Shown in pieces: positions 8,741-62,754 of a stretch of DNA of 64,000 nucleotides. The stretch's first letter is position 1; the number at the start of each line of letters is the position of its first letter. This DNA comes from Macrostomum lignano (lineage: Eukaryota), in assembly GCA_002269645.1 (NCBI GenBank), contig NIVC01001584.1:92807-156806 (forward strand), written 5' to 3'. The notes under the pieces were generated by a model. It was given only the letters and a program-made list of their open reading frames with translations, was not told the origin of the DNA and did no database searches. The position numbers and the translations under genes are program-made.

Positions 8741-8830
8741 CAGATTTACTGCAACCTTTTATTGAATAATTTATTTGCTTACGAACTTTTGTTTTAATAA
8801 GTATGGTATATGTACCTATACAGCCATGGG

Positions 8831-9343
8831 CAACTGAAGTAGAAGGACGCTCTTAGTGGTGACATGTGTGCCTATGGTGACACCCCATGACCATCCCTTA
8901 CCCTACTTCAGTTGTCTATGTGTATACAGTACGAGTGTTGGAATATTTGGTATATAAAATCCGATGTCTTATTTAATTGACCTTTAATGGGCGCCTTCGC
9001 AGCAAAGAATCAATAGTCTATGGTACAAATACTTCTATACCGGGACCAATAAATCATTTAATGGTCTTCAAACGGGCTCTGCCCCCGCACCTCCACCCGC
9101 AATCACGGTCGACCAGATTGAATATCCCAAAAATAAGCAATCTGATTTCATAGAAAATAATAGTCATTAAATTAAGCTATGTCTATGGTCTGAATGTCCT
9201 TGGCCCCACTCAATTACCCTATTCAGCGGGAACTCTCTAAAGCATATTACCTAAATGCACTATAGCAGAAAACAGATGTACGTTCTTTGGCCTCCAGCTC
9301 ATTTTCTAAGTAAACTGAGCGTAGCGTCCTTCTACTGCAGCTG
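8831..9343. mobile_element. MITE-like element with ~21-bp TIRs (second copy at ~20250-21213)
   Basis: caactgaagtagaaggacgct at 8831 versus agcgtccttctactgcagctg ending at 9343; the same TIR pair lies downstream of gene copy 2. No TSD resolved. Confidence 0.55.
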
Positions 9344-20177: not shown

Positions 20178-20562
20178 CAGATTCACTGCAACCTTTTATT
20201 GAATAATTTTTTAATTACGAATAATTATTAGATATGTGTACCAACAGTCATGGACAACTGAAGTAGAAGGATGCTCTTAGTCTTAGTATATTTTCGAGAA
20301 AGCTAATTTGTCTATGGTGAAACCCCATGACCATACCATTGCCCTACTTCAGTAATTGTCTATGCGTATACTTATTCTAAAGTAATTATTTACTCTACCA
20401 TACAAAATTGCTTATTTAATAGCTCCAGACAAACTACGACCTTGTAATATGCTGAAGACCATGCATAAAGTCCAGAAGTTTACGGTACATGCATATTTAT
20501 GGTATTTTTCGACTTAATTGCGTGACGTACTCAGGAAAAAAACAGTTGCTTTTAGTTTAAAC

Positions 20563-21881: not shown

Positions 21882-24800
21882 ATGGTAAGTTCTTTCGCTT
21901 GTTACATGTAACTAAAAATCGACAATGTTATACACACAATACCACGAATATCTTTTCTACTTTTAGGAACAAACTCAGAACCAGGGAATTTTCGTTTCCG
22001 CTGTAGCCGAAAACACGACTGAAAGTGATGCTGTTGAAGCTGACGAACTCGCTACCGCTTGTGATGCGCCCTGCGAATCAACCGAGTCACAAGCCGATAC
22101 GGCACCACGGGTGTATTGCTACGAGGAGAGGCTCACGTGCGAATCAATCAAGAATGTTGCCATTGGCGACGTACTAGAAATCCGATACTTTGAACTGCCG
22201 CACAAAATTATCGTGGAGAACACGAGCATCGTTGACACTGAGCAGGAGTTGATCATCACCATCGATGCCATTCACTACGGAAGAGACTGGCTTTCTGTCC
22301 AGGTAATGAGAGAAAAATTTCAATTCATTGCTCGAAAAGACTCATTGGATCCCGGTGGGGCGCTGAGCAGGAAATGCTGGAAGTGTCACTTCCCACCAAC
22401 CTGGTGCCACCCACCCGATGTGGTAGTGCAAAGAGCTCGAAGTCGGCTGAACGAACGAGAGCACTCGGTCATTGACAACAGGGCGTCTCATTTTGCATTT
22501 TGGTGCAAGACCCAGTCGGTTAGCAATCGTGCGAACAATATTGTACCGATCTTTGTAGCCGCTAATCAGCACATTCACGAAGTGAAAGTTGGCGACCATT
22601 TGAACTTTGCGACAGACGGTGAAATTGAATTACACGGAGAAGTTAGAGATGCTGTCAAGGCGAGTGAGTCGCAGGTTTTGTTAACTATGCTAGTGTCGAG
22701 TAGACACGTGAACAGAGAAATAATCAACTCTGCGCACATTTGTGAAACTAGAATTCAAAAACCAGTACAAGTTGTAAAATCAGCTGCAATTGGTCTGACT
22801 AGTGAAGATTTACAATGGCGAATCAGAATGATACAGGATATTTCCTACAAGCGTTTGGTTGGAAAACTTGCCTTCTGTCTACACCTGACCAATCCTAACT
22901 TAAGCAGGGAAGACTGGCTTTGTCGAGCTATCCAGGTTCCAAACGTCACGACAGAAACTGCGCAACCACTCTGTAAGACCATTCGCCCAGAGCTGTTGAA
23001 TCCAGGCGACATCATACTGCATGACGGCATATACTCAGTGGTGTCTGCAGTCAGATGCGATGGCTCAGGTGCTCTGATAACTAAAATTCAGTACTCTGCC
23101 CGTCGAGTAAACAAAAATGCTCATAACTGCCTGTTTGAAATAAAAATTGCTATCGAAAAATACGAAAGACAGGCTGTGCTTTGCGTTCACAACGACATTT
23201 TCCGAGATTGTCATCTGTACGGTGGAGGACTTGAAACACCCAGCTACACTGTAACCAAGGTGACGAGTGTGAATGAAATTTACAAAGGGTGCGTCATTAG
23301 CACCAGAGACGGCTTAGTCTTCAAACACTTGGTTGTCACCGATTGTCCCAAAATAATTAGTACACCGGCAATGAAAAACCAAGTGATGTTTAGCGCGATT
23401 TCCTACAATGTAGGACCTTCTATGTTGCTCGGAAAAAATTCCGTCGCCGAGAGCAGCTACACAATAAATTTAAGAACAACGCCAGTTTACGTTGTGAAGT
23501 ACTGTGTCTCGAACGAGGTTCTCTACTCAACTGAGGAGGTGGTTCTTAGGGCTCGCTCGCGTCTGGGAGAGAGACAGCACAACTTCCAGTGGAACAGCGG
23601 CCGAGACTTAGCTCGATGGTGCAGCATCAAGCACCAGAGTAATTTGGAACAGTGCATCGTTCCTGTTACCTCGGCAGACGATCTACATCGTTTCCAAAGA
23701 GGACACATCAAATTCTTGAAGAAGCCGAAGTCTCTCTACGCGCACGATGTTCTTCTCAAAGAGTGCAGTAAAGTTGAAGACTGCGACGATGTGCTGAGAG
23801 TGATATACTATGAAAACAACGTCGTTTTCAAGCATGTCCGCATTGAGAAGCTGGGCATTGGAGAAGATGAGCACCTCCAAAGAGTTCGGTACGCAAGCTG
23901 TCGAGAATGGAACCAAGCAGAACTAGAAAATCTGATTGATCATACGTTTCTAAATGCGGATGACGATCGGCTGGGCTACCTAGGAATGCAAGGCAGCAGA
24001 GTGACTAGCCAAGATTTTTGCTTCTGGATAAAAACTCGCTTCTCAAAGGATGGCATCAAGGCAGTCAAAAACTTACTCGGCGAGGAGTTGGGGCTGTTAA
24101 GGAACGAACTGAAAGTCAAGAGGAAGGACACGGAAACCATCGTAGGTGGACGAAGCCTAAAACCGTTGGATCACATCGTTCTTAGGCGCACTGTAGCTGG
24201 TAAGGAAGCAGAAGTTCACTTCGTCATCACGAGCTGGGATGCAAATTTATCTACCGGCTATGGAGTAACTTACGAATTTCCCGTAAAGAAGACCGAAATG
24301 GGATTCTACGAGTTTAAAGGCTTTCTCAGATTAACTGGCCCGGGTCAGATCGAGAAGGTGGTGCACAACTCAGAGTTCAATTGGGATCTAATTCTAGAAA
24401 AAATTCGAGATCTGTGCGGAGGGGAAGATTACAGCATTCCGTTCAACAATTGCGAGCACTTTGTCAACTACTTGATTTATGGCAGAGTTGTCTGTCTGCA
24501 GCTAGTTAGGCACTCGAGGAGGCTGCTTGGCTTTGTACCGAGTTTTCTACACCATATAGCTGCCGATTGCATTAGATTCCAGAAGTTTGCAATGCACCAC
24601 GCGTCTGGCTTAAGAAAAGTCGGCGTTAAAATTCCAATTTTTGAGAGCGTTGGCCTAGTTCTCAACCTTGTTATCGCCGGCTGTCGATTTCTGCAACTGA
24701 TCAGGCGTCGGGCTCGAACAGCCATGCCACACGAAGAGTTTTCGATGCGAAGACGTTATATTTTCGTGGACGCGATTTCGTCAACATTCGGGGTTTTATT

Positions 24801-24921
24801 GGCTCTTGTTTTGATCGCAGTGCAGGCTACTGTATTTACACCGCTCACTCTGTGTTCCGCACTCATTGGGTACGCGTTGTTGAAGCTGATTCCCTTGGTA
24901 AAATCAATTTTTGTGCCTTGA
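21882..24921 (+). CDS. Poly-LRAT/NC-domain membrane protein, copy 3 (intact, ~985 aa; exon 21882-21884, or from ATG 21840, plus exon 21967-24921)
   Basis: ATG|gtaagt donor at 21885 and tttttag acceptor at 21966, phase 0 and in frame with ORF 22111-24921. Six modules; the last has EVHFVI (His) and YSIPFNNCEHFVNYLIYG (Cys); hydrophobic C-terminal segments. Confidence 0.85.
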
Positions 24922-26286
24922 AAAGCTTCTAAAAAACCTTACGCAGACTATTTTTTCTGGAATTAGCAAGCCCGTAGTCAGTATGTCTGTGACGTCACGG
25001 TATCTGGATTATTAATTGTTCGATTTTTTTTCATTCTATATGATCCGTGCCATTGTTTTTATTCCAGAACATGTAATATATTGATAGTAATACCGTAGTT
25101 TATTTGGTTGTACATGAATTTTACACCACTCTTGTTTAGAAATTTTATCACTGCCTGTAGTTTTTAATATTGTAGCTGGTGCACGGCTGAGAGCGAGGCC
25201 CTCATGTACACAGGCCCCTGCATGCATGCCTGGCTGCTGGGGGGAGCGGGGCGGTTGCAGTTTGATCTGACTCACACCTCCCTATTCTTGTTAGGTATAA
25301 ATGACTATGATTAACAAGTATATGCAAAATCTTTTTGCTCGCTTGCTACTTTTCAACTAGCCACCATGCTCGCAACAAGCCGCTTTAATATTCTAGAATT
25401 TCGTGCGCCTGTACGAAGTAATATAAATTGCCAATGGGGAAATCCCTAATTCCCTGGGAAACCTCTCATTATCGGTGGCTAGTAGTTAATTATAAAGTTT
25501 TATATAAGTTAGTACATGTAAATCTTTAATTGCATTTAGTTTCTTGTCTAAAACACTTCTTTTTATTATTTTTTACGAATTTTTTTTAATCCGAAATTAT
25601 TTTTTATGACGGTAAAAAAATTTGTTACACATTCAAATATATTTCAGAAGACTGTTATGAAGAATCAATTTAACTCTCGAACGAAATTTTGGAGTCCAAT
25701 GGACCCGACGATTACTTTCTCCATGTTTCTTATGGAGAGTTTTCTATTATCGTGGCGCAACTTTTCGCGGGTTAATAACTTTGACCCACAATTGTTGTCA
25801 GTAATTTTTAAACTGTTGTTTAGATAACTGAAATACGTGTAGCTAATTATAATTTTGACCAAAAAGCAGAAGACTTGGTTACTAGTAGACAGATTTTTTG
25901 TTTGTATAGTAGTTGAACGAGTTATAACCAATATTGCGGGTGTAATTTTAACCTTTATTTTTTCATAGAAACAGTATAATTGCTCTTTCGTCCACGGTTA
26001 ACTAGTTCAGTGGATCCTAACTTTTTATCCACAATAAAAAATATCAACCCTGTGCTGTATAGATATTAAGATATATACAGTCTGTGATCTCATACTTTTG
26101 CATTAAGCACTAGTTTACTTTTTTGCAAAACTAATAATATCAGATTTCAAGAAATTTAAACAACTATTAGGCCTTTGAATTTGAAGCTAAGCCTAAAGGA
26201 AATAAACATTTAATATTAATTAAGAGTTCTGTATTGCATACAATTTACAATCTTTAAATAGTCACATTTTATTATTGTTTCCAAGA

Positions 26287-32965: not shown

Positions 32966-34018
<1,053 letters not shown>

Positions 34019-34046
34019 ACTCAAAATTGATGCAATTTTCCATTAA

Positions 34047-34226
<180 letters not shown>

Positions 34227-34615
34227 TAAGCCCCAATAAAATTGTATATTTTGTTAAGATAAATAACTTTATATATTGTTGTTGGAAGGGCTGGTAGGTA
34301 AAGTTAATTCTAGATGTATAAATGCGCTTTATACTATTACTTACTAAGTAGTTTAAAAGTACATATTTTAGTCAATTAATTCCATTAAATTCGGCACCAG
34401 AAATGGGGCTCTGTTTGCCATAATAATGTGTTTGCCTAAATCTCTGCTATCAAATTAATTGTTTTTTAACCAGAGAGAACTTTACACAACTTACTGCTGA
34501 CTAACTCACGAGAGTCGTTGTGTTAGCGCTTAACTTTCTAGTAACTCAAGTACTGTCTAAATTCGATTAGTAGAAAGCATGAGGGGGCTTCTGGGACAAA
34601 ATTTTTCACCTCCTC

Positions 34616-34824
34616 CATAATCCCATTAAATCCATCCATATTATCCCTGACAGAATCAGAAAAAAAGGGGGGTCGCACCTGCTCACAAAACCTCCTCCAT
34701 AATCCCATTAAATCCATCCATATTATCCCTGACAGAATCATGAAAAAGGGGAGGGGCCGCACTTGCTCCGAAAACTTCGAACATAATCCCATTAAATCCA
34801 TCCATATTATCCCTGACAGAATCA
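34616..34824. repeat. Three identical 43-bp direct repeats at 82/84-bp spacing in the TIR (mirrored in the right arm)
   Basis: cataatcccattaaatccatccatattatccctgacagaatca at 34616, 34698 and 34782. Confidence 0.92.
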
Positions 34825-35023
34825 GAGCAGGTGTCCACTGATACCTGTTATGCTCACTGACACCGACATCCACCCATAGCATGTTCGAAACAATCAGAAA
34901 ATAATCTGCATTCTTCTCCCCATGGGGCCCACATTCAATTTGCAACGCGAAATCAGATCCCTAAGACTTTAAATTATCAGCGCAGGGTCCTTACCCTTTG
35001 AAAAAATTAAATTCTCAATAAAA

Positions 35024-35260
35024 ATGTTTCCAGTTGTCTCTCCAGGTTCTTATTATACTCAGCCTAATCCATTGTACAAATCCAAGTACCGATGCAAACT
35101 AGAATGCAGCGAGTACATGAGAAAATATTGGCCCGACGTTGATATCAATGTCCCTAACATTAATCTAGCTCTCCAAAGACACTGGTTTCATAAGTATGGA
35201 GTAGTCATTAACGATTACGACAGCTACTATAACTTTGCAGAAATCATTAAGCAATTGTGA
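35024..35260 (+). CDS. 78-aa Tyr-rich orphan protein in the left arm (identical protein at 42397-42633, minus strand)
   Basis: aataaaaATG context matching the other element genes; ends 4 bp from the penton stop codon. Confidence 0.6.
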   Translation: MFPVVSPGSYYTQPNPLYKSKYRCKLECSEYMRKYWPDVDINVPNINLALQRHWFHKYGVVINDYDSYYNFAEIIKQL

Positions 35261-35264
35261 TTTC

Positions 35265-36128
35265 TTAAATTCTCTCAATGATCAACGTCAATACAAACTC
35301 TTCACCGTTGAAATCAACACCCATCCCATCTTCAGTCTCAAACTGTAGCACAATCTCGTGAATCTCCTTATTACTCAATACAACTCTTTTCACTGGATTT
35401 GGTTTCTCTACCACCATCTGTCCTCCAGCTACAGAGTTGGAGATATTGTACAAAATATTCGTTCGCTTTCCCTTAAATACCCAATCAAGACTGAGATTGC
35501 TTCTGATTAGAATATTCAAACCCTTTACAATGTCTGCAATATTGGGTGCTAAGAACAAACCGCTTACACTTTCCCGGACCATTCTAACAGTCCCCGATGC
35601 TTGAGTGGCGGTCCGCGCCGCGGATTCTGCCTTATAAACTTTCTTCTCGAATCCCAGTTCCCTATACCAAGTGTCATCTTTAAACTCAACTTCCGCATCT
35701 TTGTGAACTTGCATGACCACTCTCATTACAGTGAGATCATAGGTTAGTTTGACAGGGAACAGTTTCTTCTCTGGCTTACTCGCATCAGGTGTCTCGAAAT
35801 GGCCTCTCTTAGTAAAGACATTTTCTAGAAAGTTATTGTAGGTATCCACACTTTGCGTGCTCACATGGAATACCACAGGGTCTGCTGCTGCACCTTTCCA
35901 TTTGTAATAAAACTTATTATTTGCTGCCATCACATTGGGAACGTTTGACCAACCAGTGAAGTCGTTAAGATAGACATGGTAATTAGCGCCTGGATCCAGG
36001 CGAATCGCCTGCTCTAATTTTTCAACAAACATCCCGTTTGAGTCATTAATTCGACCAGTTATTGTAATAGGAATGCTCTCCTTAGAGTGTGAAACAATGT
36101 TGTTTAGTCTTTCAGCAATCGCTTCCAT
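35265..36128 (-). CDS. Minor capsid protein (penton-like, single jelly roll), left copy, 287 aa
   Basis: Motifs ...IRLDPGANYHVYLNDFTGWSNVPNV..NNKFYY... and ...GVDFNGEEFVLTLIIERI match the Polinton/adintovirus minor capsid pattern; protein identical to 41529-42392. Confidence 0.85.
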   Translation of the reverse strand: MEAIAERLNNIVSHSKESIPITITGRINDSNGMFVEKLEQAIRLDPGANYHVYLNDFTGWSNVPNVMAANNKFYYKWKGAAADPVVFHVSTQSVDTYNNFLENVFTKRGHFETPDASKPEKKLFPVKLTYDLTVMRVVMQVHKDAEVEFKDDTWYRELGFEKKVYKAESAARTATQASGTVRMVRESVSGLFLAPNIADIVKGLNILIRSNLSLDWVFKGKRTNILYNISNSVAGGQMVVEKPNPVKRVVLSNKEIHEIVLQFETEDGMGVDFNGEEFVLTLIIERI

Positions 36129-36150
36129 TTTTTTTCACATAAAAAAATAT

Positions 36151-36831
36151 TTAAACTTTACTGGATGAATTGTTGATCATGTTAAGCTTCACCTTCCTCT
36201 CAAATGCATAGATAATGTACAAGTCCACAGGTGTTGCGGCAGTCCTCTCAATGTTAGTCACGATATTCACAGGGCTGTTATCAGTAGGCATTTGTCTGGC
36301 AGACACATCAGCGCCAAACACATCTGAAATGAACTTATCGTCTATTGCCCTTGAAATGTACCCTATGATTGAAGTGTGCACCCCTTTCTCTTTTACTTGC
36401 TTCTCCTGTAGCTGCTTTAGTTTTTTTCGCCTGTTTCGCGCTACTGCTCCAGTAATTGCTGAAATAAGTCCACATGCAGCACCCACAGAGCCGAGCGGGA
36501 TTGCGATTGGGGCTGTGATGACTGGCAACACTGAGACAGCTGCAGCAGATCCAGATAGAACAGACACAGATCCTAGAATCATATTGCTGTAGTCGAAAAA
36601 TTTACAGTGGCTGTTATAGCGCTTAATTTTCTTTGTGTTGTGGAAAATATTTTTTTCAAGATCATCTCGCATTTTTTGAATCTCCACCAGTCGAAACTGT
36701 TGAGAGTTACAAGTAATGACGGGGTAGAGTTTTTGTTGCTCATATTGAGGTGCACTAGGTGCTGTGGGCGCTGTGGGCGCTGTGGGTGCTGTAAGAGCGT
36801 TCAGATCATAAAGAGAATTTTGAGCATCCAT
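36151..36831 (-). CDS. Chimeric ORF: 170 aa of a hydrophobic-hairpin Polinton protein fused in frame to the last 55 aa of the MCP
   Basis: N-terminal part FRLVEIQKMRDDLEK...ILGSVSVLSGSAAAVSVLPVITAPIAIPLGSVGAACGLISAITG...ISRAIDDKFISD; C-terminal part FGADVSARQ...NSSSKV is identical to the MCP end. The junction is at 36320/36321. Confidence 0.8.
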   Translation of the reverse strand: MDAQNSLYDLNALTAPTAPTAPTAPSAPQYEQQKLYPVITCNSQQFRLVEIQKMRDDLEKNIFHNTKKIKRYNSHCKFFDYSNMILGSVSVLSGSAAAVSVLPVITAPIAIPLGSVGAACGLISAITGAVARNRRKKLKQLQEKQVKEKGVHTSIIGYISRAIDDKFISDVFGADVSARQMPTDNSPVNIVTNIERTAATPVDLYIIYAFERKVKLNMINNSSSKV

Positions 36832-36878
36832 TTTTTTAGGAAATTTTTAAAAAAATAATCGACTACTAGTTGGTGGTG

Positions 36879-37667
36879 TTAGATTTGTTTTACGGTTGAT
36901 TGCTTCGTCTGCAGTGACGGCAACGGGTCTCTTCGAATTTGCCTATTCATTGTCTGTAGCTCCATTCTACGTCTGATCTCAAACAAGTCGGTTGGATCAC
37001 TTATTTCCCTTGTGGTCTGTGGTGGTGCCTCTTCAACGTCAATGTTTTTGAGATTATGCAAGCGTTCAAGACGACCGATTCTTCTCACCGATTTCTGCCA
37101 TTCGGTAAAAACTAAATCTACAAAGACTTTAATTGCAGTAATTCTTACTTTGATTTGATCATGCAACGCTGTTGACTGAGTCATGAACTCTTCTAAATTA
37201 TTGGCTTTAACTGTGTTGGTTGCGACGTTTTCTTTAATTCTATCATGCAATGCTGTTGACTGGTTCATGAACTCTTCTAAATTATTCACTTTAGCTGTGT
37301 TTGTGAAAACTCCTCCTTCAAGAATACGCATCCGTCTATCAATGGAATTTCCCAGAAGATTAACTGATGATCTCAAGCCGTTGATTAGCGAGACTATCGA
37401 AGTTATTTCTGACCTTAGTTCATTAGTTGCGTTTAACAACGGCACATAAAGCTTATCACTTTCAAACTTCTGCCTAGCTACTTTAAGCCTGAGATCTTCC
37501 ATGTTTATTTGCAACTGGTGCATGGAGCGCTCTAATTGTTTCAGTCTGTTTTTATTCAGTTTGATCTCTGGGATCTCTTCATCAGTGTTAATGTAGCGCT
37601 TATCAAGGAAGGAAGTTGTGAGAGTGCTGTTGCCTGTAGTTGACTCACCTGCAAAATTTACTGACAT
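36879..37667 (-). CDS. 262-aa coiled-coil protein with a 28-aa tandem repeat; candidate fibre/spike
   Basis: Heptad pattern across ~aa 35-205; TNTAKVNNLEEFMNQSTALHDRIKENVA / TNTVKANNLEEFMTQSTALHDQIK; aaaaaATG context. Confidence 0.7.
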   Translation of the reverse strand: MSVNFAGESTTGNSTLTTSFLDKRYINTDEEIPEIKLNKNRLKQLERSMHQLQINMEDLRLKVARQKFESDKLYVPLLNATNELRSEITSIVSLINGLRSSVNLLGNSIDRRMRILEGGVFTNTAKVNNLEEFMNQSTALHDRIKENVATNTVKANNLEEFMTQSTALHDQIKVRITAIKVFVDLVFTEWQKSVRRIGRLERLHNLKNIDVEEAPPQTTREISDPTDLFEIRRRMELQTMNRQIRRDPLPSLQTKQSTVKQI

Positions 37668-37682
37668 TTTTTAAATAAAAAA

Positions 37683-38483
37683 TTAAATTAAAATTCTTTT
37701 CTCCTTATTAATCATGACAAACTGATAGGGTTGGTTCCACTTTTCATAGCATATGTTAACAAATTCCTCCTGTGATATTGTTCTGTTAGAGTTCTTAGCT
37801 GGATATGTAATGTGAGCTGGGGCAATGACTTCATTATAAAATCGTTTCAGTCGATCCTGTGGTATGGTTGGGAAAAGGAGAATCAAATTACAGTTACCTC
37901 TAATTGTTTTATTTGGCAGTTCAAACCAGTTTTGGGCAATGTAAATAACATTGCAATTATTATGTCTACCCCGGGTGAAATAATTTTCTATCTGTTTCTG
38001 GGGACCGGTCATGCAGTCATCGAAGACAATCAGGTGCTTTCTCCCCTTTTCTAGTTCATCAGGTTGAGGTAAGAGTTTAGTTTTAGGATCTATCTGTGGA
38101 TCTCCATAAGTGAAAACTTTAATGTTTTGCCATTTTTCATTGTCTGGGATGTGCTTTGCGTATTCAGTGGCTACAACTTCCGGGTTGCTGTTGAGGTCTT
38201 TTTGATGTCTAAAACATTGAATAATATCTTCCTTGTTGAGTTTGTTCTGTAGGCCCGCTACTAGCATTTTATACTCATCTTGATACAGAGTGGGTGAATA
38301 GATATGTAGTGTGTCATAATCGAGGAATCCAGGTCTGAGGAGCATGTTAAAAACTCTGAAGGTTTTCCCTGACCCAGATGAGCCAACAACAATGCATCGG
38401 AAGTGCCCTGGAATTATCTCGTTGTGAGCAAATTTTATCTGATTGCGTGTCCAGTGGGGATGAAAGTCGTTTGTGAAGTCCAT
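37683..38483 (-). CDS. A32/FtsK-HerA family DNA packaging ATPase, 266 aa
   Basis: Walker A IVVGSSGSGKT, Walker B LIVFDD, and the A32-family motif RGRHNNCNVIYIAQ. Confidence 0.93.
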   Translation of the reverse strand: MDFTNDFHPHWTRNQIKFAHNEIIPGHFRCIVVGSSGSGKTFRVFNMLLRPGFLDYDTLHIYSPTLYQDEYKMLVAGLQNKLNKEDIIQCFRHQKDLNSNPEVVATEYAKHIPDNEKWQNIKVFTYGDPQIDPKTKLLPQPDELEKGRKHLIVFDDCMTGPQKQIENYFTRGRHNNCNVIYIAQNWFELPNKTIRGNCNLILLFPTIPQDRLKRFYNEVIAPAHITYPAKNSNRTISQEEFVNICYEKWNQPYQFVMINKEKRILI

Positions 38484-38682
38484 TTTTTATGTAAAAAAAC
38501 TTTTTCTTTTTAAAATTGTGTATTTAAGACGCGTGTGTCTTTTTTCGGGATGTGTATGTGTGTGTCTCTTTGCGGGATGTGTGTGTCTTTTTTTCGGGTT
38601 GTGTGTGTCTTTTTTTTCTACTAGTCCTACATCCGACTAGTCCTACACCCTCACACCTCTTTTACCGTCAGGGTGCACCAAA

Positions 38683-39063
38683 TTAGTCAAATTTAAAACC
38701 GCCTCCTTTCTTATATTCAGCTCTCATCTTTGCGTAGATGGCTGGATCGACACTATCTGCACTCGGTGCAAGGGGTTGAATATCTGGTATTGATTTCCGG
38801 GTTTCATTAACTGTATCCTTTATCTTTTTGGCTGCTGTGGCTACACTGCCAGCCGCTTCGGCAACGTTCTTGATGTTCTCTTTGTTCTCTCCAATGACCT
38901 TAAAAATCTTGGCCCCCTGAGCGATCAAATCGGCAAGACCGTTCCCAGAGCGTTCTTTTCTTGGATAGTGGCCTGCAGGGAAAAGTCCAGATCCGCGTTT
39001 AATGAGATTAAGTTCCTCTTTGTCGTAGTATTTGTCAATGTCTTTTTCGAAAATAATTGGCAT
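38683..39063 (-). CDS. 126-aa basic/amphipathic protein with GxG motifs; candidate virion core or membrane-active precursor
   Basis: Likely start aaaaagATG at 39063 (the ORF track start at 39168 overlaps the upstream gene); KRGSGL, RSGNGL and KKGGGF motifs; amphipathic GLADLIAQGAKIFKVIG. Confidence 0.65.
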   Translation of the reverse strand: MPIIFEKDIDKYYDKEELNLIKRGSGLFPAGHYPRKERSGNGLADLIAQGAKIFKVIGENKENIKNVAEAAGSVATAAKKIKDTVNETRKSIPDIQPLAPSADSVDPAIYAKMRAEYKKGGGFKFD

Positions 39064-39079
39064 CTTTTTAAATAGAAAT

Positions 39080-40189
39080 TTATTTTTTGTTAAACCGTGA
39101 AAGCAAAAGTTCTCTTGCTCTTTTATCGATATATTTTCTCTCAAGCATTTTGTCCAGGATGTTGACAAATTCTTTTCTATTCTCGTCTTTCATTCCGGTC
39201 TTTGCCGCTCCTAGAAGAACAGCTAACCGCTTGTAGAATTCAGGCATGCCTTTTCCGGAAGAGCTTGGAGGTGATTCGAATGATTGGTCAGAGGAGGAAC
39301 TGTCATGTGGCGCTTGTCTTTGTTGAGGTGTGAATACTCTGTCATTGATTCGCTTCATTCGTTCTGGGGAGAGCCGCTCTAATTGTCGCCAAGTATCAGG
39401 GTTCGTATCTTTGTACTGCGAAACAACAATCGGTTCTGCGGCGTCAAGTTGATCAAGTACTTGTTCAACCTGGGTTTTTTGTTGTTGTGGTTGCTGCTGT
39501 TGTTGTCTTATGACCTCTTCTTGATCTGGCAAACCAAACCATTGTTTAAAGTATTTGTATTTTCTAAACCTGTTCAAGTCAATCCTGTTTTCATGTAAAA
39601 CTTTCAAAACACCGTTGTTCTTGAGAATGTCTATGTCCCTCTCTAAAGCGAAGGTAACAAGATCTTTGTAATTTTTTAGCTGCTTTTCAGACGTTTTCTC
39701 TAGATTTTTAGTCATGTAATCAAGTAAAGTTTTAGTGTAGGGGATTCTTTTAGTTTCTGCACCTTTATTGATTGAAATATTTTCCTTTGTTACTTCAATG
39801 TTGTAATCCACCGGTTCCTTGGTAATTTCTTTTCGCCAGGCGCTAATTCCAAAAATATATTTTCCATCAACCATTACGGGGCCAAAAAAGTTATCCGTCA
39901 CATTCATCTGCACTGGTTGTCCTGGTTGCTGAGCCTGTGGTTGTTCCGGTGAAGATGGGATTTTACCCAATGTGTTTTGCAACTGGCTCTCTTGAATATC
40001 ATCAATTGTTTCCTTCACAGTGTCGATGTTTTTCTTCGCTTCTGTGTATCCAGGTTTGTGAAATTCGGTGGCTGCTTGGACGAATTCATTGTAAGATTGT
40101 TGTTCTTTGTTGATTAGTCCGGTAACTCGTTTCTCTGCTTGCGCCAGCTTTTCTAGTTCAGAGATATGATATGAACTTTTCCGCTTCAT
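39080..40189 (-). CDS. 369-aa conserved Polinton-type protein (resembles PZ/core-type proteins)
   Basis: The C-terminal GKG..FYKRLAVLLGAAKTGMKDENRKEFVNILDKMLERKYI resembles the conserved 'RLxLLxAsxxAGN...EixxIldeL' ending of Polinton proteins (recalled from memory, not searched). Confidence 0.6.
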   Translation of the reverse strand: MKRKSSYHISELEKLAQAEKRVTGLINKEQQSYNEFVQAATEFHKPGYTEAKKNIDTVKETIDDIQESQLQNTLGKIPSSPEQPQAQQPGQPVQMNVTDNFFGPVMVDGKYIFGISAWRKEITKEPVDYNIEVTKENISINKGAETKRIPYTKTLLDYMTKNLEKTSEKQLKNYKDLVTFALERDIDILKNNGVLKVLHENRIDLNRFRKYKYFKQWFGLPDQEEVIRQQQQQPQQQKTQVEQVLDQLDAAEPIVVSQYKDTNPDTWRQLERLSPERMKRINDRVFTPQQRQAPHDSSSSDQSFESPPSSSGKGMPEFYKRLAVLLGAAKTGMKDENRKEFVNILDKMLERKYIDKRARELLLSRFNKK

Positions 40190-40219
40190 TTCTTATTTTG
40201 TTTTATTTTTAGTTAAAAA

Positions 40220-41506
40220 ATGAACGACCCACTGGCACCAGTTTTCTACAAAATTAACAAGCCTATTTTGAGTGATGATAGCACAATCAAAGCGACACAA
40301 GTTAGAGTTCCGAGTCACGAGAACCAGAATGAAACTAATTTGGGTCCAGGTCAAACACTGACATTTACATACAATGGATGTTCGTCTCTGGTTAGTGTGC
40401 ACAGTCTTAAGAGCGGATTCCATATGACATTTCAATTCAAGACAAAAGGTGGTGCGGATGCGGCTCGTGCTAACGTTGACAAGCATGATGCGGATGTGGC
40501 TCTGATCAGTAACTTTTGGGCGTACATGTTCAAGGAGTTTAGTGTATTGAATGGGAGCACAGAGTTGGAGCGAATCGCCAACTTTGGAATTGTCTATGAC
40601 GCTCATTGTTTGATCGAGAATCCTGATTTTATTCAGTTGGGAAGTGGTGCGGGTTTTATTGCAGACGAAAAAGAAGGAGATATCAATGACAGTGGCTATA
40701 AAAATAGGAAGAAGAGATACAACTATGCATTGCAAGGTGCAGATGATGCTGCTAAGAACCCGCTGTATCGGTCTGTTGATGTATTTGTACCATTGAGATT
40801 CATGAGTGGATTCTGTAATACATTTAATCGACTGACTAGTAACTTTAGCTACACATTTAGACTGACTAGAGATGATCGCAGTAGAGTGTTGTGGACTGGG
40901 GCGGACCACACTGGGATGGCTGTGAAGCTAACCGGAATCGAGCTGTATTTGGAAGTCATTGAGCCAAAGACTGCACTAAAAGCTGATTATCTCAAGGCAA
41001 TAGAGAAGGACATTGATGTTGCATACACGGCCTACATGTGTCGAGATGAGCGAAACGAAACTAGAACAAACATCTGCATTAAAGAGGGATCATGCAGCAA
41101 TCCAAGGTATATTATTATTAACATGAGAAACCCAAATAGCATTATACGCTACATGCATGGAGACGTGCGGTCCATTCAGCATGAAATCAGTGATAATCTT
41201 TACCCTGCACTGCCACAAAATGGAGATTTCAGTCAGAACAAGATTAGCAAATTTTACAACGAGTTGGTCGACTTGGCTGTGAAAGAGAACAATGGAATTG
41301 CTATCACTGCTCTTCAATATGGAACTCTATATCCGATGTTTGGCGCTGATGTGTCTGCCAGACAAATGCCTACTGATAACAGCCCTGTGAATATCGTGAC
41401 TAACATTGAGAGGACTGCCGCAACACCTGTGGACTTGTACATTATCTATGCATTTGAGAGGAAGGTGAAGCTTAACATGATCAACAATTCATCCAGTAAA
41501 GTTTAA
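40220..41506 (+). CDS. Major capsid protein (double jelly roll, Polinton/adintovirus hexon-like), 428 aa
   Basis: SDDSTIK..., LISNFWAYMFKEFSVLNGSTELERIANFG, ...LYPMFGADVS...PVNIVTNIE...LYIIYAFERKVKLN follow the Polinton MCP pattern; adjacent to penton and ATPase genes. Confidence 0.88.
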   Translation: MNDPLAPVFYKINKPILSDDSTIKATQVRVPSHENQNETNLGPGQTLTFTYNGCSSLVSVHSLKSGFHMTFQFKTKGGADAARANVDKHDADVALISNFWAYMFKEFSVLNGSTELERIANFGIVYDAHCLIENPDFIQLGSGAGFIADEKEGDINDSGYKNRKKRYNYALQGADDAAKNPLYRSVDVFVPLRFMSGFCNTFNRLTSNFSYTFRLTRDDRSRVLWTGADHTGMAVKLTGIELYLEVIEPKTALKADYLKAIEKDIDVAYTAYMCRDERNETRTNICIKEGSCSNPRYIIINMRNPNSIIRYMHGDVRSIQHEISDNLYPALPQNGDFSQNKISKFYNELVDLAVKENNGIAITALQYGTLYPMFGADVSARQMPTDNSPVNIVTNIERTAATPVDLYIIYAFERKVKLNMINNSSSKV

Positions 41507-41528
41507 ATATTTTTTTATGTGAAAAAAA

Positions 41529-42392
41529 ATGGAAGCGATTGCTGAAAGACTAAACAACATTGTTTCACACTCTAAGGAGAGCATTCCTATTACAATAACT
41601 GGTCGAATTAATGACTCAAACGGGATGTTTGTTGAAAAATTAGAGCAGGCGATTCGCCTGGATCCAGGCGCTAATTACCATGTCTATCTTAACGACTTCA
41701 CTGGTTGGTCAAACGTTCCCAATGTGATGGCAGCAAATAATAAGTTTTATTACAAATGGAAAGGTGCAGCAGCAGACCCTGTGGTATTCCATGTGAGCAC
41801 GCAAAGTGTGGATACCTACAATAACTTTCTAGAAAATGTCTTTACTAAGAGAGGCCATTTCGAGACACCTGATGCGAGTAAGCCAGAGAAGAAACTGTTC
41901 CCTGTCAAACTAACCTATGATCTCACTGTAATGAGAGTGGTCATGCAAGTTCACAAAGATGCGGAAGTTGAGTTTAAAGATGACACTTGGTATAGGGAAC
42001 TGGGATTCGAGAAGAAAGTTTATAAGGCAGAATCCGCGGCGCGGACCGCCACTCAAGCATCGGGGACTGTTAGAATGGTCCGGGAAAGTGTAAGCGGTTT
42101 GTTCTTAGCACCCAATATTGCAGACATTGTAAAGGGTTTGAATATTCTAATCAGAAGCAATCTCAGTCTTGATTGGGTATTTAAGGGAAAGCGAACGAAT
42201 ATTTTGTACAATATCTCCAACTCTGTAGCTGGAGGACAGATGGTGGTAGAGAAACCAAATCCAGTGAAAAGAGTTGTATTGAGTAATAAGGAGATTCACG
42301 AGATTGTGCTACAGTTTGAGACTGAAGATGGGATGGGTGTTGATTTCAACGGTGAAGAGTTTGTATTGACGTTGATCATTGAGAGAATTTAA
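41529..42392 (+). CDS. Minor capsid protein (penton-like), right copy, 287 aa
   Basis: Directly downstream of the MCP; identical to the left copy. Confidence 0.87.
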   Translation: MEAIAERLNNIVSHSKESIPITITGRINDSNGMFVEKLEQAIRLDPGANYHVYLNDFTGWSNVPNVMAANNKFYYKWKGAAADPVVFHVSTQSVDTYNNFLENVFTKRGHFETPDASKPEKKLFPVKLTYDLTVMRVVMQVHKDAEVEFKDDTWYRELGFEKKVYKAESAARTATQASGTVRMVRESVSGLFLAPNIADIVKGLNILIRSNLSLDWVFKGKRTNILYNISNSVAGGQMVVEKPNPVKRVVLSNKEIHEIVLQFETEDGMGVDFNGEEFVLTLIIERI

Positions 42393-42396
42393 GAAA

Positions 42397-42633
42397 TCAC
42401 AATTGCTTAATGATTTCTGCAAAGTTATAGTAGCTGTCGTAATCGTTAATGACTACTCCATACTTATGAAACCAGTGTCTTTGGAGAGCTAGATTAATAT
42501 TAGGGACATTGATATCAACGTCGGGCCAATATTTTCTCATGTACTCGCTGCATTCTAGTTTGCATCGGTACTTGGATTTGTACAATGGATTAGGCTGAGT
42601 ATAATAAGAACCTGGAGAGACAACTGGAAACAT
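42397..42633 (-). CDS. 78-aa orphan protein, right-arm copy
   Basis: Same protein as 35024-35260; one synonymous difference seen. Confidence 0.6.
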   Translation of the reverse strand: MFPVVSPGSYYTQPNPLYKSKYRCKLECSEYMRKYWPDVDINVPNINLALQRHWFHKYGVVINDYDSYYNFAEIIKQL

Positions 42634-43559
42634 TTTTATTGAGAATTTAATTTTTTCAAAGGGTAAGGACCCTGCGCTGATAATTTAAAGTCTTAGGGAT
42701 CTGATTTCGCGTTGCAAATTGAATGTGGGCCCATGGGGAGAAGAATGCAGATTATTTTCTGATTGTTTCGAACATGCTATGGGTGGATGTCGGTGTCAGT
42801 GAGCATAACAGGTATCAGTGGACACCTGCTCTGATTCTGTCAGGGATAATATGGATGGATTTAATGGGATTATGTTCGAAGTTTTCGGAGCAAGTGCGGC
42901 CCCTCCCCTTTTTCATGATTCTGTCAGGGATAATATGGATGGATTTAATGGGATTATGGAGGAGGTTTTGTGAGCAGGTGCGACCCCCCTTTTTTTCTGA
43001 TTCTGTCAGGGATAATATGGATGGATTTAATGGGATTATGGAGGAGGTGAAAAATTTTGTCCCAGAAGTCCCCTCATGCTTTCTACTTCGATTTGTTATA
43101 AATGCGAAATATAAATGCTTTAGACGCAACTCAGAGTGATTCTGCAGTGACTCACGACTCAGATAGGACTCTGTGTCATTTCAGAGTACACAAGTAGACG
43201 TGAGTTGGCTACTCCATAGACCTCTTTAAGCCATAGACATTTTTATGCCTCTCATTGTGTGCTACTTCCGTTGTACTAATCTGTTCTAAATTGGATAGCA
43301 AGCTCTCTGAGATGGTGGGGTGGGTAGAATGAAGACTATGTCTGTCTGCCTTAATTTGAGGTGTGAGCAATCCACTTTTTTATAGAATTCTAGGCCAGTG
43401 AAACTGAATTTTTAATTTGTACCTCAGTGCATGTCAAGAATGGTTGTACAGTCAGTAAGGTTTGCAGGGTTCAAAAAAGGACAAACGTTCTAGAATGGTT
43501 TTGGGGTCTTAAGAAGGCTTACAGGGTCTCAAGAAAAGTTGTACGGTCTCAAGAAGGGT

Positions 43560-44600
43560 TGTAGGGTCTCGAAAGATCTCGGTATTAGGGTCTCGAGAAG
43601 GGTATTAGGGACTCGAGAAGGATTTTAGGGTCTCGAGAAGGATTTTAGGGTCTCGAGAAGGGTGTAGGGTCTCGAGAAGGGTATTAGGGTCTCGAGAAGG
43701 GTATTGGGGTCTCGAGAAGGGTATTAGGGTCTTAAGAAGGCTTACAAGGTCTCAAGAAGGGTTTTAGGATCTCGAGAAGGGTTTTAAGGTCTCGAGAAGG
43801 GTTTTAGGGTCTCGAGAAGGGTTTTAGGGTCTCGAGAAGGGTTGTAGGGTCTCGAAAAGGGTTTTAGGGTCTCGAGAAGGATTTTAGGGTCTCGAGAAGG
43901 ATTTTAGGGTCTCGAGAAGGGTGTAGGGTCTCGAGAAGGGTATTAGGGACTCGAGAAGGATTTTAGGGTCTCGAGAAGGATTTTAGGGTCTCGAGAAGGG
44001 TGTAGGGTCTCGAGAAGGGTATTAGGGTCTCGAGAAGGGTATTGGGGTCTCGAGAAGGGTATTAGGGTCTTAAGAAGGCTTACAAGGTCTCAAGAAGGGT
44101 TTTAGGATCTCGAGAAGGGTTTTAAGGTCTCGAGAAGGGTTTTAGGGTCTCGAGAAGGGTTTTAGGGTCTCGAGAAGGGTTGTAGGGTCTCGAAAAGGGT
44201 TTTAGGGTCTCGAGAAGGATTTTAGGGTCTCGAGAAGGATTTTAGGGTCTCGAGAAGGGTGTAGGGTCTCGAGAAGGGTATTAGAGTCTCGAGAAGGGTA
44301 TTAGGGACTCGAGAAAGATTTTAGGGTCTCGAGAAGGGTGTAGGGTCTTGGGAAGGGTATTAGGGTCTCGAGAAGGGTATTGGGGTCTCGAGAAGGGTAT
44401 TAGGGTCTTAAGAAGGCTTACAAGGTCTCAAGAAGGGTTTTAGGATCTCGACAAGGGTTTTAAGGTCTCGAGAAGGGTTTTAGGGTCTCGAGAAGGGTTT
44501 TAGGGTCTCGAGAAGGGTTGTAGGGTCTCGAAAAGGGTTTTAGGGTCTCGAGAAGGGTTGTAGGGTCTCAAGAAGGTTTCAGGGCCTCAAAAAGGGTTAA
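43560..44600. repeat. ~20-bp minisatellite (gggtctcgagaagggtttta) with a 338-bp higher-order period, Rab2 intron 4
   Basis: The variant block cttaagaaggcttacaagg recurs at 43731, 44069 and 44407. Confidence 0.93.
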
Positions 44601-44742
44601 ATGGTCTCAAGAAGGCTTTCAAGACCCCTGAGAACTTCATGTATTTGAAATGTGTCCAGAAAATTTACAGATTGCAGGGATGGCTAAACAAGAATTCAGA
44701 CAGGTCTTAGTGACGCACACGCCAGTACATGCCCGACGTTGA

Positions 44743-45072
<330 letters not shown>

Positions 45073-45229
45073 ACTTGACAACTGGATTGTGCAAAACGCA
45101 GAATAACTTTGAAGGGCGATCGGCAATATTAGCAATCCATAATTACCTGGCAGGCCGTTTCTTAGAATATGCCCTAATATAGGGGTTTAAAATTCTATTT
45201 CAATGAATTAATGCTCTCGCAAGAATTAC

Positions 45230-45800
45230 CCCTAGATATTTCTAATAATCACCCATAGATATTTATATGAATTGCCCTAGATGTTTCTAAGAACTGTCCC
45301 TACATATTTCTAAGAATTTATATTTATAGGCTAGATATTTATATGAATTACCCTTAGATATTTCTAAGAATTGCCTTAGATGTTTCTAAGAATTGTCCCT
45401 ACATATTTCTAAGAATTATCCCTAGATATTTATATGAATTACCCTTAGATATTTCTGAGAATCACCCCCAGATATTTATTAGAATTGCCCTAGATATTTC
45501 TAAGAATTTCCCTAGATGTTTCTAAGAATTCTCCCTACATATTTCTAAGAATTTTCCCTAGATATTTGTATGAATTGCCCCTAGATATTTCTGAGAATCA
45601 CCCCCAGATATTTATTAGAATTACCCTTAGATATTTCTAAGAATTGCACTAGATATTTCTAAGAATTGCCCCTACATATTTCTAAGAATTGTCCCTAGAT
45701 ATTTCTAAGAATTGCGCCTACATATTTCTAAGAATTGCCCCTACATATTTATATTACTTGTCAATTCATATTTTTAAGATTGTCCCTAGATATTTATAAG
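45230..45800. repeat. Degenerate ~21-22-bp tandem repeat (ccctagatatttctaagaattg) downstream of the Rab2 stop
   Basis: Recurrent ccctagat/ccctacat + atttctaagaatt units. Confidence 0.88.
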
Positions 45801-46724
45801 AGGGGCCTGTAAATTTTTAAAAATATTTTCCTTCAACGTTTTGGGGAATTTAAAATCATAAGAATTAAACAAAAAAAAACTATGTTAAGTTTGAATCTGA
45901 TACAAATTATCTGTAATTAAATATCTGTAACCCGCTTTAAATAATTGCATTGCAAAATTCGGATGTCAGATTAAAATTATTTTGTTTGTTTCAACGTGCC
46001 CAAATTTGTCTTGTGTTGTGCTTTAAATGGTTTTCTTTGTTTTAATTATGCATGACTTATACTCTGAGCAGCCCATTTTATTGATGACTTTCTGCTGTTG
46101 ATGGGCAGTGAACTAATTTTAGAAAATCCCAAATTGCTTTATTATTTTATTCAACTGTGTTGTGTTTCAATTAATTGCTTTACCTTGAGTAGTTTGTCAC
46201 CACTGTTACTTTTTAGTCTACTGATGTTGTTTTCCTCTCTTTTTTTATTTCAGCTTTCTGAACTGATTTTATTAATACAGTTTCTAACTTTGTTATATTT
46301 GTTATTATTGATTTTATTTTTGACTCGTATTAAAACAAAATTCCATAGAAACTTAGCGATATAATTATTAGCCAAGTTCCGTTTTTCCGTTTTACTTTGC
46401 ACAAATGAAAAAAAATTGTCACACAAGCGTTGGTAAGACTGTCTGAGCTGGTGAATAAATATTCGTTATTGATGATCAAATATTTGCCACAATTATATTC
46501 TGGTCCCAAAACCCCCAGCAGGGATTTTGCTTACAAAAACATGAGAACAATGTTTTATTCTCAACTTGTATTGTGCTTATTATATTCCAATAATATATAT
46601 TATCTAGTTGATGTTGTTTGAAATCAGTTTTAAACATCAGGTTTTACACAGTCTCTTTATTTCATTTTATGATCAGTCAAATTTGGTGTTTAAAAAGCAA
46701 TGTACAATTTTTGAACAGAGAAAG

Positions 46725-52900: not shown

Positions 52901-55900
52901 GTCATTCTACTGGCAGACGTCTTCTGGCTGTCGCAGCACTTCAGAACATGCAGCCATCAGCATTGGCAGTTTCGGCGTTGGAGCGTCTGCTGATGTCGGG
53001 TGCTTTGATCAGCAGCTCTGATGGCAGAAGACTGCAGGCTGCCATTGTACGCGCCTTGCTGCCCAGGTTGGAAAAAGGCACTTGTCCAACTAACAGAAAT
53101 TGGTGAGTCAATCATGTTTTTTTAAGTTGCAGGTAATTTTACCGAGGGATGTCGCGACAGAAGTCGTTACGAGTGTACCCTTAGCAACGTTGAAAACCGC
53201 CAGAGCAGTGGCCGAGCGATTGACTTCAGCTTACTACTACAGTATGCAGATGATGATGCAAGGTTTTTTAACGCTCGCTCGGGTTGTCTAGGGTGTAGGG
53301 TGGCGGTTTTCAATGTTGCTAAGTATACATAATGAGGGGACCTTAGGGGTTGTAGCCAAGTGGTTAGAGCGTCGGACTCACAACTGAAGGTCAGGGGTTC
53401 GATTCCAAACCCACTGGAACAATTTGTGCACTTGAGCAAGACACTTAACTCTGCATTTTTTCAGTTAACCCAGCTGTAAAATGGTTACCAGCATTAGCTG
53501 GGGTAATTGACGGTGCGTGTCGCGACCCCCCAGTCCTTGGATTGAGCAGCCGTACGCAACCTTCAGATGCGCCGCGCAATAGCTGCGGCTGAGCTCTCGG
53601 TTGCACATCTGGCCCAATTGTAATCAAATACCATTAATATTACTATCGCACAACAACAAATTTGCAGCCTTCTTAGTTCAGAACTGTGTTCTTCTGAAAG
53701 GCTTTTTGATTTAATAAACGTTATAAAGTCAATTTATTCATATTTTATACGTCCGGTACAGTGACTTTGAACTGCTAATTTTATTAATAAAGACCCTAAT
53801 GACACTAATATTTCAGTCCAACGTCTCTCTCCACTGCAATCGAACGCTTGTGGAACAGCAGCAACCCAGCTGACGCAGCCTTAGCCACTTACGCACACTC
53901 TGTCGCTCGGAAACGGCTCGAAAAACTGGAATCGTCACTTTCACAGGACTCTGCGTTGAAAAGCGACGCAGCTCTGAGGCAATTGCGTCAATTGGTGGAG
54001 AAACCTCCGGCGCTTTTCTCCATCGACCGGGCGTCGAAACCGTCGGTTCGCGCCGACAGGTTTCAGCTGGTAGACGGCCTGATTGATATCAGCTATGAGA
54101 TTGACTGGGAAAGCGCTGATGCGGTGATAATCTCGATGCCAACTCGAGCCGAGTTTCAACTGACCCTACATAACCAGATGACTGGATTTGCTGTTCCACT
54201 GCTGGATGCGGAATTGATTCGACGGTTTTCTAACGGCCCAGGTGATCATACGGCGGTCATCAGAAGAAGAGGCGATGTTACTGTAGCAGTTGACTGGACA
54301 GGCGAGTCTTCTATTGGCGATTTGCAGCGGCTTCTGTGGGACGACACGTGGATGTCTGCGACAATTGAGTCTGTTTTGATGCCGACAACATTGCAAGTGA
54401 CTACAAGCCTTGGACAGGTAGGGAAACCGAATCTTCAACTCTCCTAAGATAAAAAATCACAAAAAACGAAAACTAGAAGTACGCAAAACTTGCGATTTTT
54501 TGCGAATTTCGTTAAAGACAGGGTTTTAGCTGCAAAAATGCTTCAGCAAAATAGAAATTTTCATATTTTTTCACCGCTAACTTTGCAATATCTGGAGCCA
54601 TTTATACTCGTAGAACAGATATTTCTCGACCGAAGTGATGGAAGTTAAGAGAAAGCCTCCTCTTTTTGAAGTTATCTGCTTGAAACACGTGATTCTATCT
54701 TTAATCTTCAGCCATGTTCACTCGCAGGCCCTCTTGATATCAAGCGAGGCGGCACTGATTGCAAATAGCGGTGTGTCACGGCGGCCACCGTCTGTGACTG
54801 AGAGCTTTCGAACCGATGGCTCCGTCATGCTGCAGCCGAGCTTCTCAGTTTATGCCAGTCGCTCAGTCCATCTATCAGGGTTGTCCATGGGCAGGCGGAG
54901 TTCGCGTTCAAGTGTCATCCATCGATTGGGCATCTCTGGCGACGGCGATCTCTCAGTGGAGCTGTTCTGGCGCTGGCAGACTTCTGATGGATGGGGCCTG
55001 TCTGTGGGTCTTCGATCGCCCCTGCAACGTCAGGAGCTGCTCAGAGTGCGCTTGATGAGTGTTCTGGCTGAAGGCAAGAATGATGCGAAAAATCCAGTGT
55101 TTAATGACACCTGGATTTCTGAAAATCAAGACGACATTTCATCAAGACAATCTTGGCAGTTGTGCATGCGAGCTTTTTCCAGAACTATCACGGGCCACAA
55201 CATTTGCGCCAGCGTTAAAAAGCAGAGACAGTGGAGTAAGTTTAGTCTAATTTTAGAGCGACAGGTGAGTTTATAATCTGTAAACGATATTTAATAAGGT
55301 TATAAAATACCTGGAGGGTCTGGGGGGAATATGACGGGGTTGTAGCCTAGTTGGGGGTTGTAGCCTAGTTGGGGGTTGTAGCCTAGTTGGGGGTTGTAGC
55401 CTAGTTGGGGGTTGTAGCCTAGTTGGGGGTTGTAGCCTAGTGGGGGTTGTAGCCTAGTTGGGGGTTGTAGCCTAGTTGGGGTTGTAGCCTAGTGGGGGGG
55501 GTTGTAGCCTAGTGGGGGTTGTAGCCTAGTTGGGGGTTGTAGCCTAGTGGGGGGTTGTAGACTAGTTGGGGGTTGTAGCCTAGTTGGGGGAGGGTTGTAG
55601 CCTAATTGGGGGTTGTAGCCTAGTGGGGGGGGGGGGTTGTAGACTAGTTGGGGGTTGTAGCCTAGTAGGAGTTGTAGCCTAGTGGGGGGGGGGGTTGTAG
55701 CCTAGTTGGGTGTTGTAGCCTAGTGGGGGGGTTGTAGCCTAGTGGGGGTTGTAGCCTAGTGGGGGTTGTAGCCTAGTGGGGGTTGTAGCCTAGTGGGGGT
55801 TGTAGCCCAATGGGGGGTTGTAGCCTAGTGGGGCTGTAGCAGTGGAGGGTTGTAGCCTAGTGGTTAGAGCGTCGGACTCACGACTTGAAGTTCGGGGTTC

Positions 55901-62752: not shown

Positions 62753-62754
62753 GG

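Follow-up and report, generated by a model that had tools for sequence, protein, structure and literature searches.

We analyzed a 64,000-nucleotide (nt) stretch of the Macrostomum lignano genome (GenBank contig NIVC01001584.1, positions 92,807 to 156,806; here called the window), which carries an 8,519-bp Polinton/Maverick element at positions 34569 to 43087, within an intron of a host Rab2 gene. The element is real: a young arm-replacement derivative that is present once and evolves neutrally. It very probably arose only once, from the capsid half of a Polinton family resident in this genome, and it is likely to be a dead by-product of DNA repair and not a helper-dependent satellite.

The ends of the element read AGTAG...CTACT, and a perfect 6-bp target site duplication (TSD), TCGATT, lies on either side (34563 to 34568 and 43088 to 43093), both as stated in an original prediction made for this DNA. 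The upstream Rab2 exon (34090 to 34226, plus strand, start approximate) ends VIMLIGNK, and the consecutive exon (44764 to 45072, plus strand, start approximate) begins SDLESRR. Two further copies of the host Rab2 gene join window position 34384 to 43161 with 13 bases between them, so the two flanks belong together. The short stretch around the element (34385 to 34568 and 43094 to 43160) contains a dispersed host repeat and is absent from the other two gene copies.

The two ends form an inverted repeat of 1,752 bp (34569 to 36320 and 41337 to 43087), while the terminal inverted repeat (TIR) of sibling copies is typically about 690 bp. The right arm (plus strand) is the native right end and served as the template. 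The left arm (minus strand) is an inverted copy of it, comprising the native TIR, the penton gene, and the 3' end of the major capsid protein (MCP) gene, and it stands in place of the replication half. The native TIR, at 34569 to 35258 on the left, contains internal repeats of about 82 bp and holds all three differences between the arms, which are two substitutions and one homopolymer indel (positions 34587, 34924, and 35158). The 1,062-bp extension beyond the native TIR is 100% identical between the arms, which lie 5 kb apart, and the longest perfect stem of the inverted repeat is 1,162 bp. A second penton (minor capsid) gene (35265 to 36128, minus strand), identical to the native copy (41529 to 42392, plus strand), is present because the left arm copies the right arm. 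The original prediction had correctly listed both pentons but missed the key feature, the inverted repeat whose two arms they represent. At 36320 to 36323, the left arm meets a hydrophobic open reading frame (ORF) in its middle, across a 2-nt insertion; the microhomology is at most 2 to 3 nt, and the junction is non-homologous.

The element shows the Polinton hallmarks of AG..CT TIR termini, a 6-bp TSD, a double-jelly-roll MCP, a penton, and an A32-type ATPase. It is not an autonomous Polinton/Maverick: the polymerase, the rve integrase, and the adenain-type maturation protease are all absent, and the PLA2, integrase, polymerase, and protease regions of a sibling are 0% covered. Both the absence of the polymerase, integrase, and protease and the assignment as a non-autonomous, capsid-side Polinton derivative had been proposed before, and the presence of the lacking functions in siblings with the same ends supports this assignment. 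The earlier list of intact ORFs holds for the ATPase, the MCP, and the two pentons but not for an "accessory" ORF of 226 amino acids (aa) at 36151 to 36831 (minus strand). This ORF is a junction chimera in which a truncated hydrophobic ORF (220 to 240 aa in siblings) is followed in frame by MCP residues 374 to 428, which make up its last 55 residues (172 to 226).

The parent is a resident 14- to 17-kb Polinton family that is abundant in the M. lignano genome. Three terminal patterns of the family match 125, 196, and 150 genome places, which gives at least 471 ends. On contigs C1 to C1684, 248 ends form 66 facing pairs, with 3 pairs below 1.5 kb, 7 of 1.5 to 13 kb, 37 of 13 to 19 kb, 12 of 19 to 26 kb, and 7 longer than 26 kb, 1 of which we looked at. 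We mapped 75 copies end to end, this element included (59 facing pairs, 12 copies paired by hand on contigs C1685 to C2789, and 4 others), and 5 further copies bring the total to 80, a partial census of the at least 471 ends. A typical copy has the order TIR, accessory genes, PLA2, integrase, polymerase, protease, hydrophobic ORF, 262-aa ORF, ATPase, two ORFs, MCP, penton, and TIR. Window positions 36323 to 43087 are colinear with the right half of full-length siblings and show 98 to 100% identity in most 300-bp segments, and the closest sibling switches along this length. The sibling proteins match integrase (PF00665), an adenain-type protease (PF00770), and a PLA2-like ORF (PF08398; E = 2.9 × 10−13), and a polymerase is also present. 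The integrase, protease, ATPase, MCP, and penton frames are all unbroken in 9 of the 75 copies, and frames in the polymerase region reach 1,268 aa at most; the assembled siblings show many homopolymer frameshifts. Alleles common to at least two copies comprise 129 synonymous and 56 nonsynonymous changes, and therefore the mobile pool holds capsid genes under purifying selection.

Family copies are mosaics, and the two ends are non-identical over the first 110 bp in 26 of 54 copies with a perfect TSD. The best-matching TIR segments of full-length copies range from less than 300 to more than 1,600 bp. On five contigs (L202 to L206, on C2829, C3589, C5061, C3282, and C4149), Polinton ends lie inside or directly adjoining other copies; the insertion point within the polymerase gene is identical in three of these contigs, which may represent a single event. 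The family also has end-only derivatives of 640 to 870 bp, the size of miniature inverted-repeat transposable elements (L072, L073, and L074, on C289, C124, and C32), and those on C289 and C124 are the same insertion. We considered the common TSDs of C869/C907, C744/C51, and C217/C1412 as shared insertions and rejected them, as the flanks differ.

The junction at 36320 to 36323 is single copy, with one match genome-wide when up to 2 mismatches are allowed. This whole-genome pattern count superseded a DNA search for the junction that scored 40 of 547 candidates. The junction of another polymerase-less copy, a 3.6-kb copy on C544 with MCP and penton only, likewise had one genome match. As a positive control, a junction with half a penton on the left arm, found in copies that retain replication genes, was present at 7 places with 7 different flanks (C714, C819, C869, C1330, C1486, C2344, and C4035; L222, L145, L168, L139, and L224 to L226); three of these copies were seen in full and three more in part. 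In the two of these copies that we examined, the left half-penton was only 73% like the copy's own right penton, a divergence pointing to later recombination between subfamilies. We found no multiplied polymerase-less junction, with 2 junctions counted genome-wide and the remainder unshared among the copies fetched.

The private changes of the reduced copies behave as neutral. The seven polymerase-less copies have 16 synonymous and 39 nonsynonymous private substitutions (neutral share, 0.274; P = 0.76), a ratio that differs from the 129:56 of the shared alleles (P = 1 × 10−7). The private substitutions of the other copies (102:148) do not differ significantly from the polymerase-less set (P = 0.13). 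For these counts, we dropped C1652, which is the same insertion as C276, and alignments below 90% identity or shorter than 150 bp. Over 6,737 bases, the element itself has 6 private changes; 3 are in coding sequence (0 synonymous and 3 nonsynonymous), too few to be read alone. Its intact capsid frames reflect its youth and not selection. The original prediction had held that a single copy with a neutral ratio of nonsynonymous to synonymous change would mark a one-off dead derivative, and the single junction, the 0:3 count here, and the 16:39 count over the seven copies largely agree with that outcome.

The arm-replaced layout recurs. Eight of the 75 copies are polymerase-less and longer than 3 kb; they represent 7 independent insertions, all with a whole penton and 5 with a perfect TSD. 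Arm replacement accounts for three independent insertions among the 80 copies mapped, each with its own junction, all retaining the capsid end, and with inverted repeats of 1.8 to 6.2 kb. The second of these insertions is capsid only and present in two copies of one host region with the same flanks (C276, 289398 to 300645, L066 and L067; C1652, 28604 to 39932, L068 and L069). It is 11.3 kb long with 4.75-kb arms, and its unique core is flipped between C276 and C1652 relative to the flanks, through either recombination between the arms or assembly ambiguity. The third (C2140, 107247 to 122715, L194 and L195) is 15.5 kb long and polymerase-less, with 6.2-kb arms at 99.9% identity. In both arms, MCP and penton are separated by a 4.4-kb retrotransposon of the Ngaro type, with a reverse transcriptase, a tyrosine recombinase, and split repeats; it turned up in none of the 73 other copies searched.

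We found no TSD-bounded copy that duplicates the replication end among the copies mapped, with the doubtful C957 left out. The C957 locus was considered as a replicase-end palindrome and rejected, as it has no matching TSD and its TIRs are 76 to 88% alike; we read it as neighboring truncated copies. Leaving it out affects the arm-replacement tally, which is 3 versus 0 in favor of the capsid end (P = 0.25); lopsided polymerase-less copies give 5 versus 0 (P = 0.06). This capsid-end bias is suggestive only. The recurring layout and the possible bias deserve a full census.

Three deletion copies of 3.6 to 3.8 kb have only the penton and all or part of MCP (L064, C544:473028-476600; L077, C827; and L065, C105), two of them with a perfect TSD. 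The C2140 junction has a short duplicated stretch that resembles a templated insertion.

The original prediction had proposed that the element could be a satellite or defective-interfering unit that mobilizes, or else supply the capsid side of a bipartite system whose other member is replicase only. The retention of a whole penton in all 7 polymerase-less insertions, their mostly perfect TSDs, and the existence of two polymerase-bearing copies without penton or MCP (C744 and C70, each with its own breakpoints) would suit such a system. We nevertheless consider it extremely unlikely: the junction is single copy, the private changes are neutral, the breakpoints differ in each reduced copy, and the 80 copies of our partial census include no multiplied replicase-only class with the same ends. 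In addition, the lack of the maturation protease leaves the virion module incomplete, and most siblings have both modules, so a partner is not needed. The clean TSD had also been taken to show that the reduced genome itself integrated. A perfect TSD is kept by 56 of the 74 copies for which both flanks are present, some of them with deletions or nested insertions, and the TSD therefore cannot show this, as a later internal rearrangement leaves it intact.

We also considered a full-length copy mis-assembled through its repeats or from a chimeric long read. The identity of the extension between the arms and the homopolymer frameshifts of the assembled siblings would fit an error of this kind, as would the lack of a listed read contig shown crossing 36320/36323, although most pieces are unlisted and contigs drop rare variants. 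We judge it very unlikely, since the flanks are consecutive Rab2 exons and agree with two other copies of the gene, each of the arms carries a private substitution of its own, a like layout with one junction was assembled twice (C276 and C1652), and the junction here contains an insertion but lacks a long overlap. Moreover, the join between the left flank and the TIR, with this element's alleles, is bridged by 38 bases in two independent DNA runs and by 29 in a third, with no differing letter (public short-read contigs from three studies). This check used four contig runs over window positions 34240 to 41330, a stretch that ends before the right join, and the pieces shown did not include the inner junction. 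A search with element words found at least half of the words in 20 of the 24 runs listed (best, 0.67), and no RNA holder was among the runs listed. We also rejected a fold-back read artifact, as 5 kb separates the two arms and their host flanks differ.

How the left arm was replaced is less certain, and we give an even chance to repair within the chromosome. A full-length Polinton already inserted in the Rab2 intron would have broken in its left half, the left TIR would have paired with the right TIR and copied inward through the penton into the MCP gene, and the new strand would then have been end joined to the broken hydrophobic ORF with the 2-nt insertion. In such a repair, the ends of the element never move, so the TSD survives and a helper is not needed. 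Private changes are more frequent in polymerase-less copies (median, 0.38% versus 0.17%; 7 versus 53 copies; P = 0.044), a pattern expected if loss comes with time spent in the chromosome. The retrotransposon copied into both arms of C2140 means that the template of that copy was probably chromosomal. In this element and C2140 together, the native TIR holds 4 of 4 arm substitutions, against none in 6.6 kb of extension (pooled P of about 0.001).

Several observations weigh against repair in place. The pooled test was post hoc, chosen with the data already seen, and consensus polishing could also erase differences deep within long repeats. The clustering in this element's own TIR (2 of 2 substitutions) is not significant (P = 0.16), and the C276/C1652 insertion shows the opposite pattern, with 0 of 5 arm substitutions in the TIR. 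The element is in the youngest quarter of the family (13 of 53 other copies have as few private changes), so an in-place event would have had little time to occur. Two of the three private alleles of the right arm are common to both arms, and the 7-copy half-penton junction demonstrates that the mobile pool includes arm-copied layouts.

It is possible, though short of probable, that the element is instead a one-off copy-back genome, formed outside the chromosome and integrated once in trans. During strand-displacement replication, a broken strand would fold back on microhomology in the MCP gene, copy as far as its own end, and regenerate a perfect terminus, and sibling polymerase and integrase would complete and integrate the genome. 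This route would explain the exact left terminus and the near-identical arms in one step. It also agrees with the element's place among the youngest copies, with the rare alleles common to both arms, and with the spread of an arm-copy junction to 7 insertions. Siblings with unbroken frames exist (9 of 75 for the five genes), and truncated virophages with regenerated TIRs have been reported (PMC8547959). As an end-copying rearrangement of its parent that keeps both termini, the element has the form of a copy-back defective genome. Against this route, none of the polymerase-less junctions has multiplied (2 counted genome-wide, the others compared among the copies fetched), polymerase-less copies are older on average, and a nested retrotransposon was copied into both C2140 arms.

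The single locus is a dead derivative, and its value lies in the class of arm-replaced, polymerase-less Polintons at three independent sites. If these copies formed in place, a clean TSD is unusable as proof of trans-mobilization. If they formed outside the chromosome, they are relevant to whether animal Polintons pass through a packaged phase of free replication and to the location of the packaging signal. A stronger version, which we think improbable, is that the family gives rise to copy-back defective genomes while it replicates as free linear DNA and that survival of one half or the other depends on a cis signal, for packaging or as an origin, at the capsid end. Such a signal would explain why all three arm replacements and all five lopsided polymerase-less copies retain the capsid end, and the insertions would then preserve a fossil record of defective-interfering particles and help to locate the Polinton packaging signal.

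In copy-back and panhandle defective genomes, and in adenovirus panhandle repair, one end is regenerated from the other, replication genes are lost, and a helper is required. The element differs in that it is known as a single chromosomal copy; amplification, packaging, and interference belong to those systems. Mu killer of maize is an inverted duplication of part of a transposon in a host transcription unit and can form a long hairpin RNA. The element likewise places a long inverted repeat, of 1,752 bp, within a host transcription unit but differs in that its arms are 5 kb apart in an intron and its hairpin is a predicted one. It is a long shot that this repeat in the intron of a housekeeping gene could yield double-stranded RNA against the family TIR and penton. 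A read-through Rab2 pre-mRNA could form the 1.75-kb stem, and three AATAAA sites on that strand might shorten the transcript.

The element shares its AG..CT ends, 6-bp TSD, MCP, penton, and ATPase with animal adintovirus-type Polintons/Mavericks (PMC8097293, PMC8502044) but lacks the polymerase, integrase, protease, and PLA2, is half the length, and has capsid genes within its 1,752-bp inverted repeat. A PLA2-like gene is described as characteristic of Alpha adintovirus virion modules (PMC8502044). The siblings, unlike the element, have such a parvovirus-like PLA2 gene, a likeness in gene content. In a survey of vertebrate Mavericks, 96% were reported as defective, and loci were chosen by integrase and polymerase matches (PMC8097293), so copies like this element would not be collected; surveys based on these two genes would miss arm-replaced polymerase-less Polintons.

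Truncated EMALEs are also shortened, integrated, virus-like elements with TIRs, and some have nested Ngaro retrotransposons; the authors state that the TIRs must have regenerated (PMC8547959). These are protist virophages, and the passages of that report consulted here do not describe a long arm duplication or a capsid-end bias (PMC8547959). Integrated Polinton-like viruses without an integrase, which may rely on trans functions, have been mentioned (PMC11296320). Arm replacement after a break is documented in the linear chromosomes of Streptomyces, where a TIR-ended replicon that has lost a broken arm gains in its place a second copy of the arm from the other end, which lengthens the inverted repeat, as here (PMC5869714). 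Those events are bacterial, on a megabase scale, and mostly begun at long homologous repeats (PMC5869714), whereas the inner junction here is non-homologous. We found no description of an arm-replaced Polinton layout in the full-text literature searched, a set outside which most subscription papers and supplements fall.

The MCP (40220 to 41506, plus strand, 428 aa) matched a double-jelly-roll domain at E = 2.3 × 10−4, below the Pfam cutoff; all seven homologs found (70 to 77% identical) have PF21738. The packaging ATPase (37683 to 38483, minus strand, 266 aa) matched Pfam Pox_A32 above the cutoff (E = 7.5 × 10−7). A structural model of the 287-aa penton from a 14-sequence alignment (predicted local distance difference test [pLDDT] score, 76) had the mavirus penton as its best structural match (E = 2.5 × 10−9), followed by adenovirus and Sputnik pentons; a fold from the single sequence reached a pLDDT of 36 only and was discarded. 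Three further conserved family ORFs are on the minus strand, a 262-aa ORF with no Pfam family at the cutoff (36879 to 37667), a 126-aa ORF (38683 to 39063), and a 369-aa ORF (39080 to 40189). Each native TIR holds a 78-aa ORF (35024 to 35260, plus strand, and 42397 to 42633, minus strand). A scan of IMG/VR with the MCP found no relative, and atlas searches returned unnamed clusters only, with a score below 0.9 for the hydrophobic ORF. An exact look-up of 8 proteins, the chimera included, found none in the collection searched, which is uninformative.

Elsewhere, the window has large direct repeats at about 5000 to 8900, 16400 to 20400, and 22000 to 25000, the first two 95 to 97% alike and about 11.4 kb apart; these are probably another transposon or a local duplication. 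Tandem arrays are present at 33078 to 34121 (period of 31 bases), 43489 to 44700 (20 bases), 45200 to 45830 (23 bases), 55298 to 55835 (18 bases), and 62731 to 64000 (21 to 24 bases).

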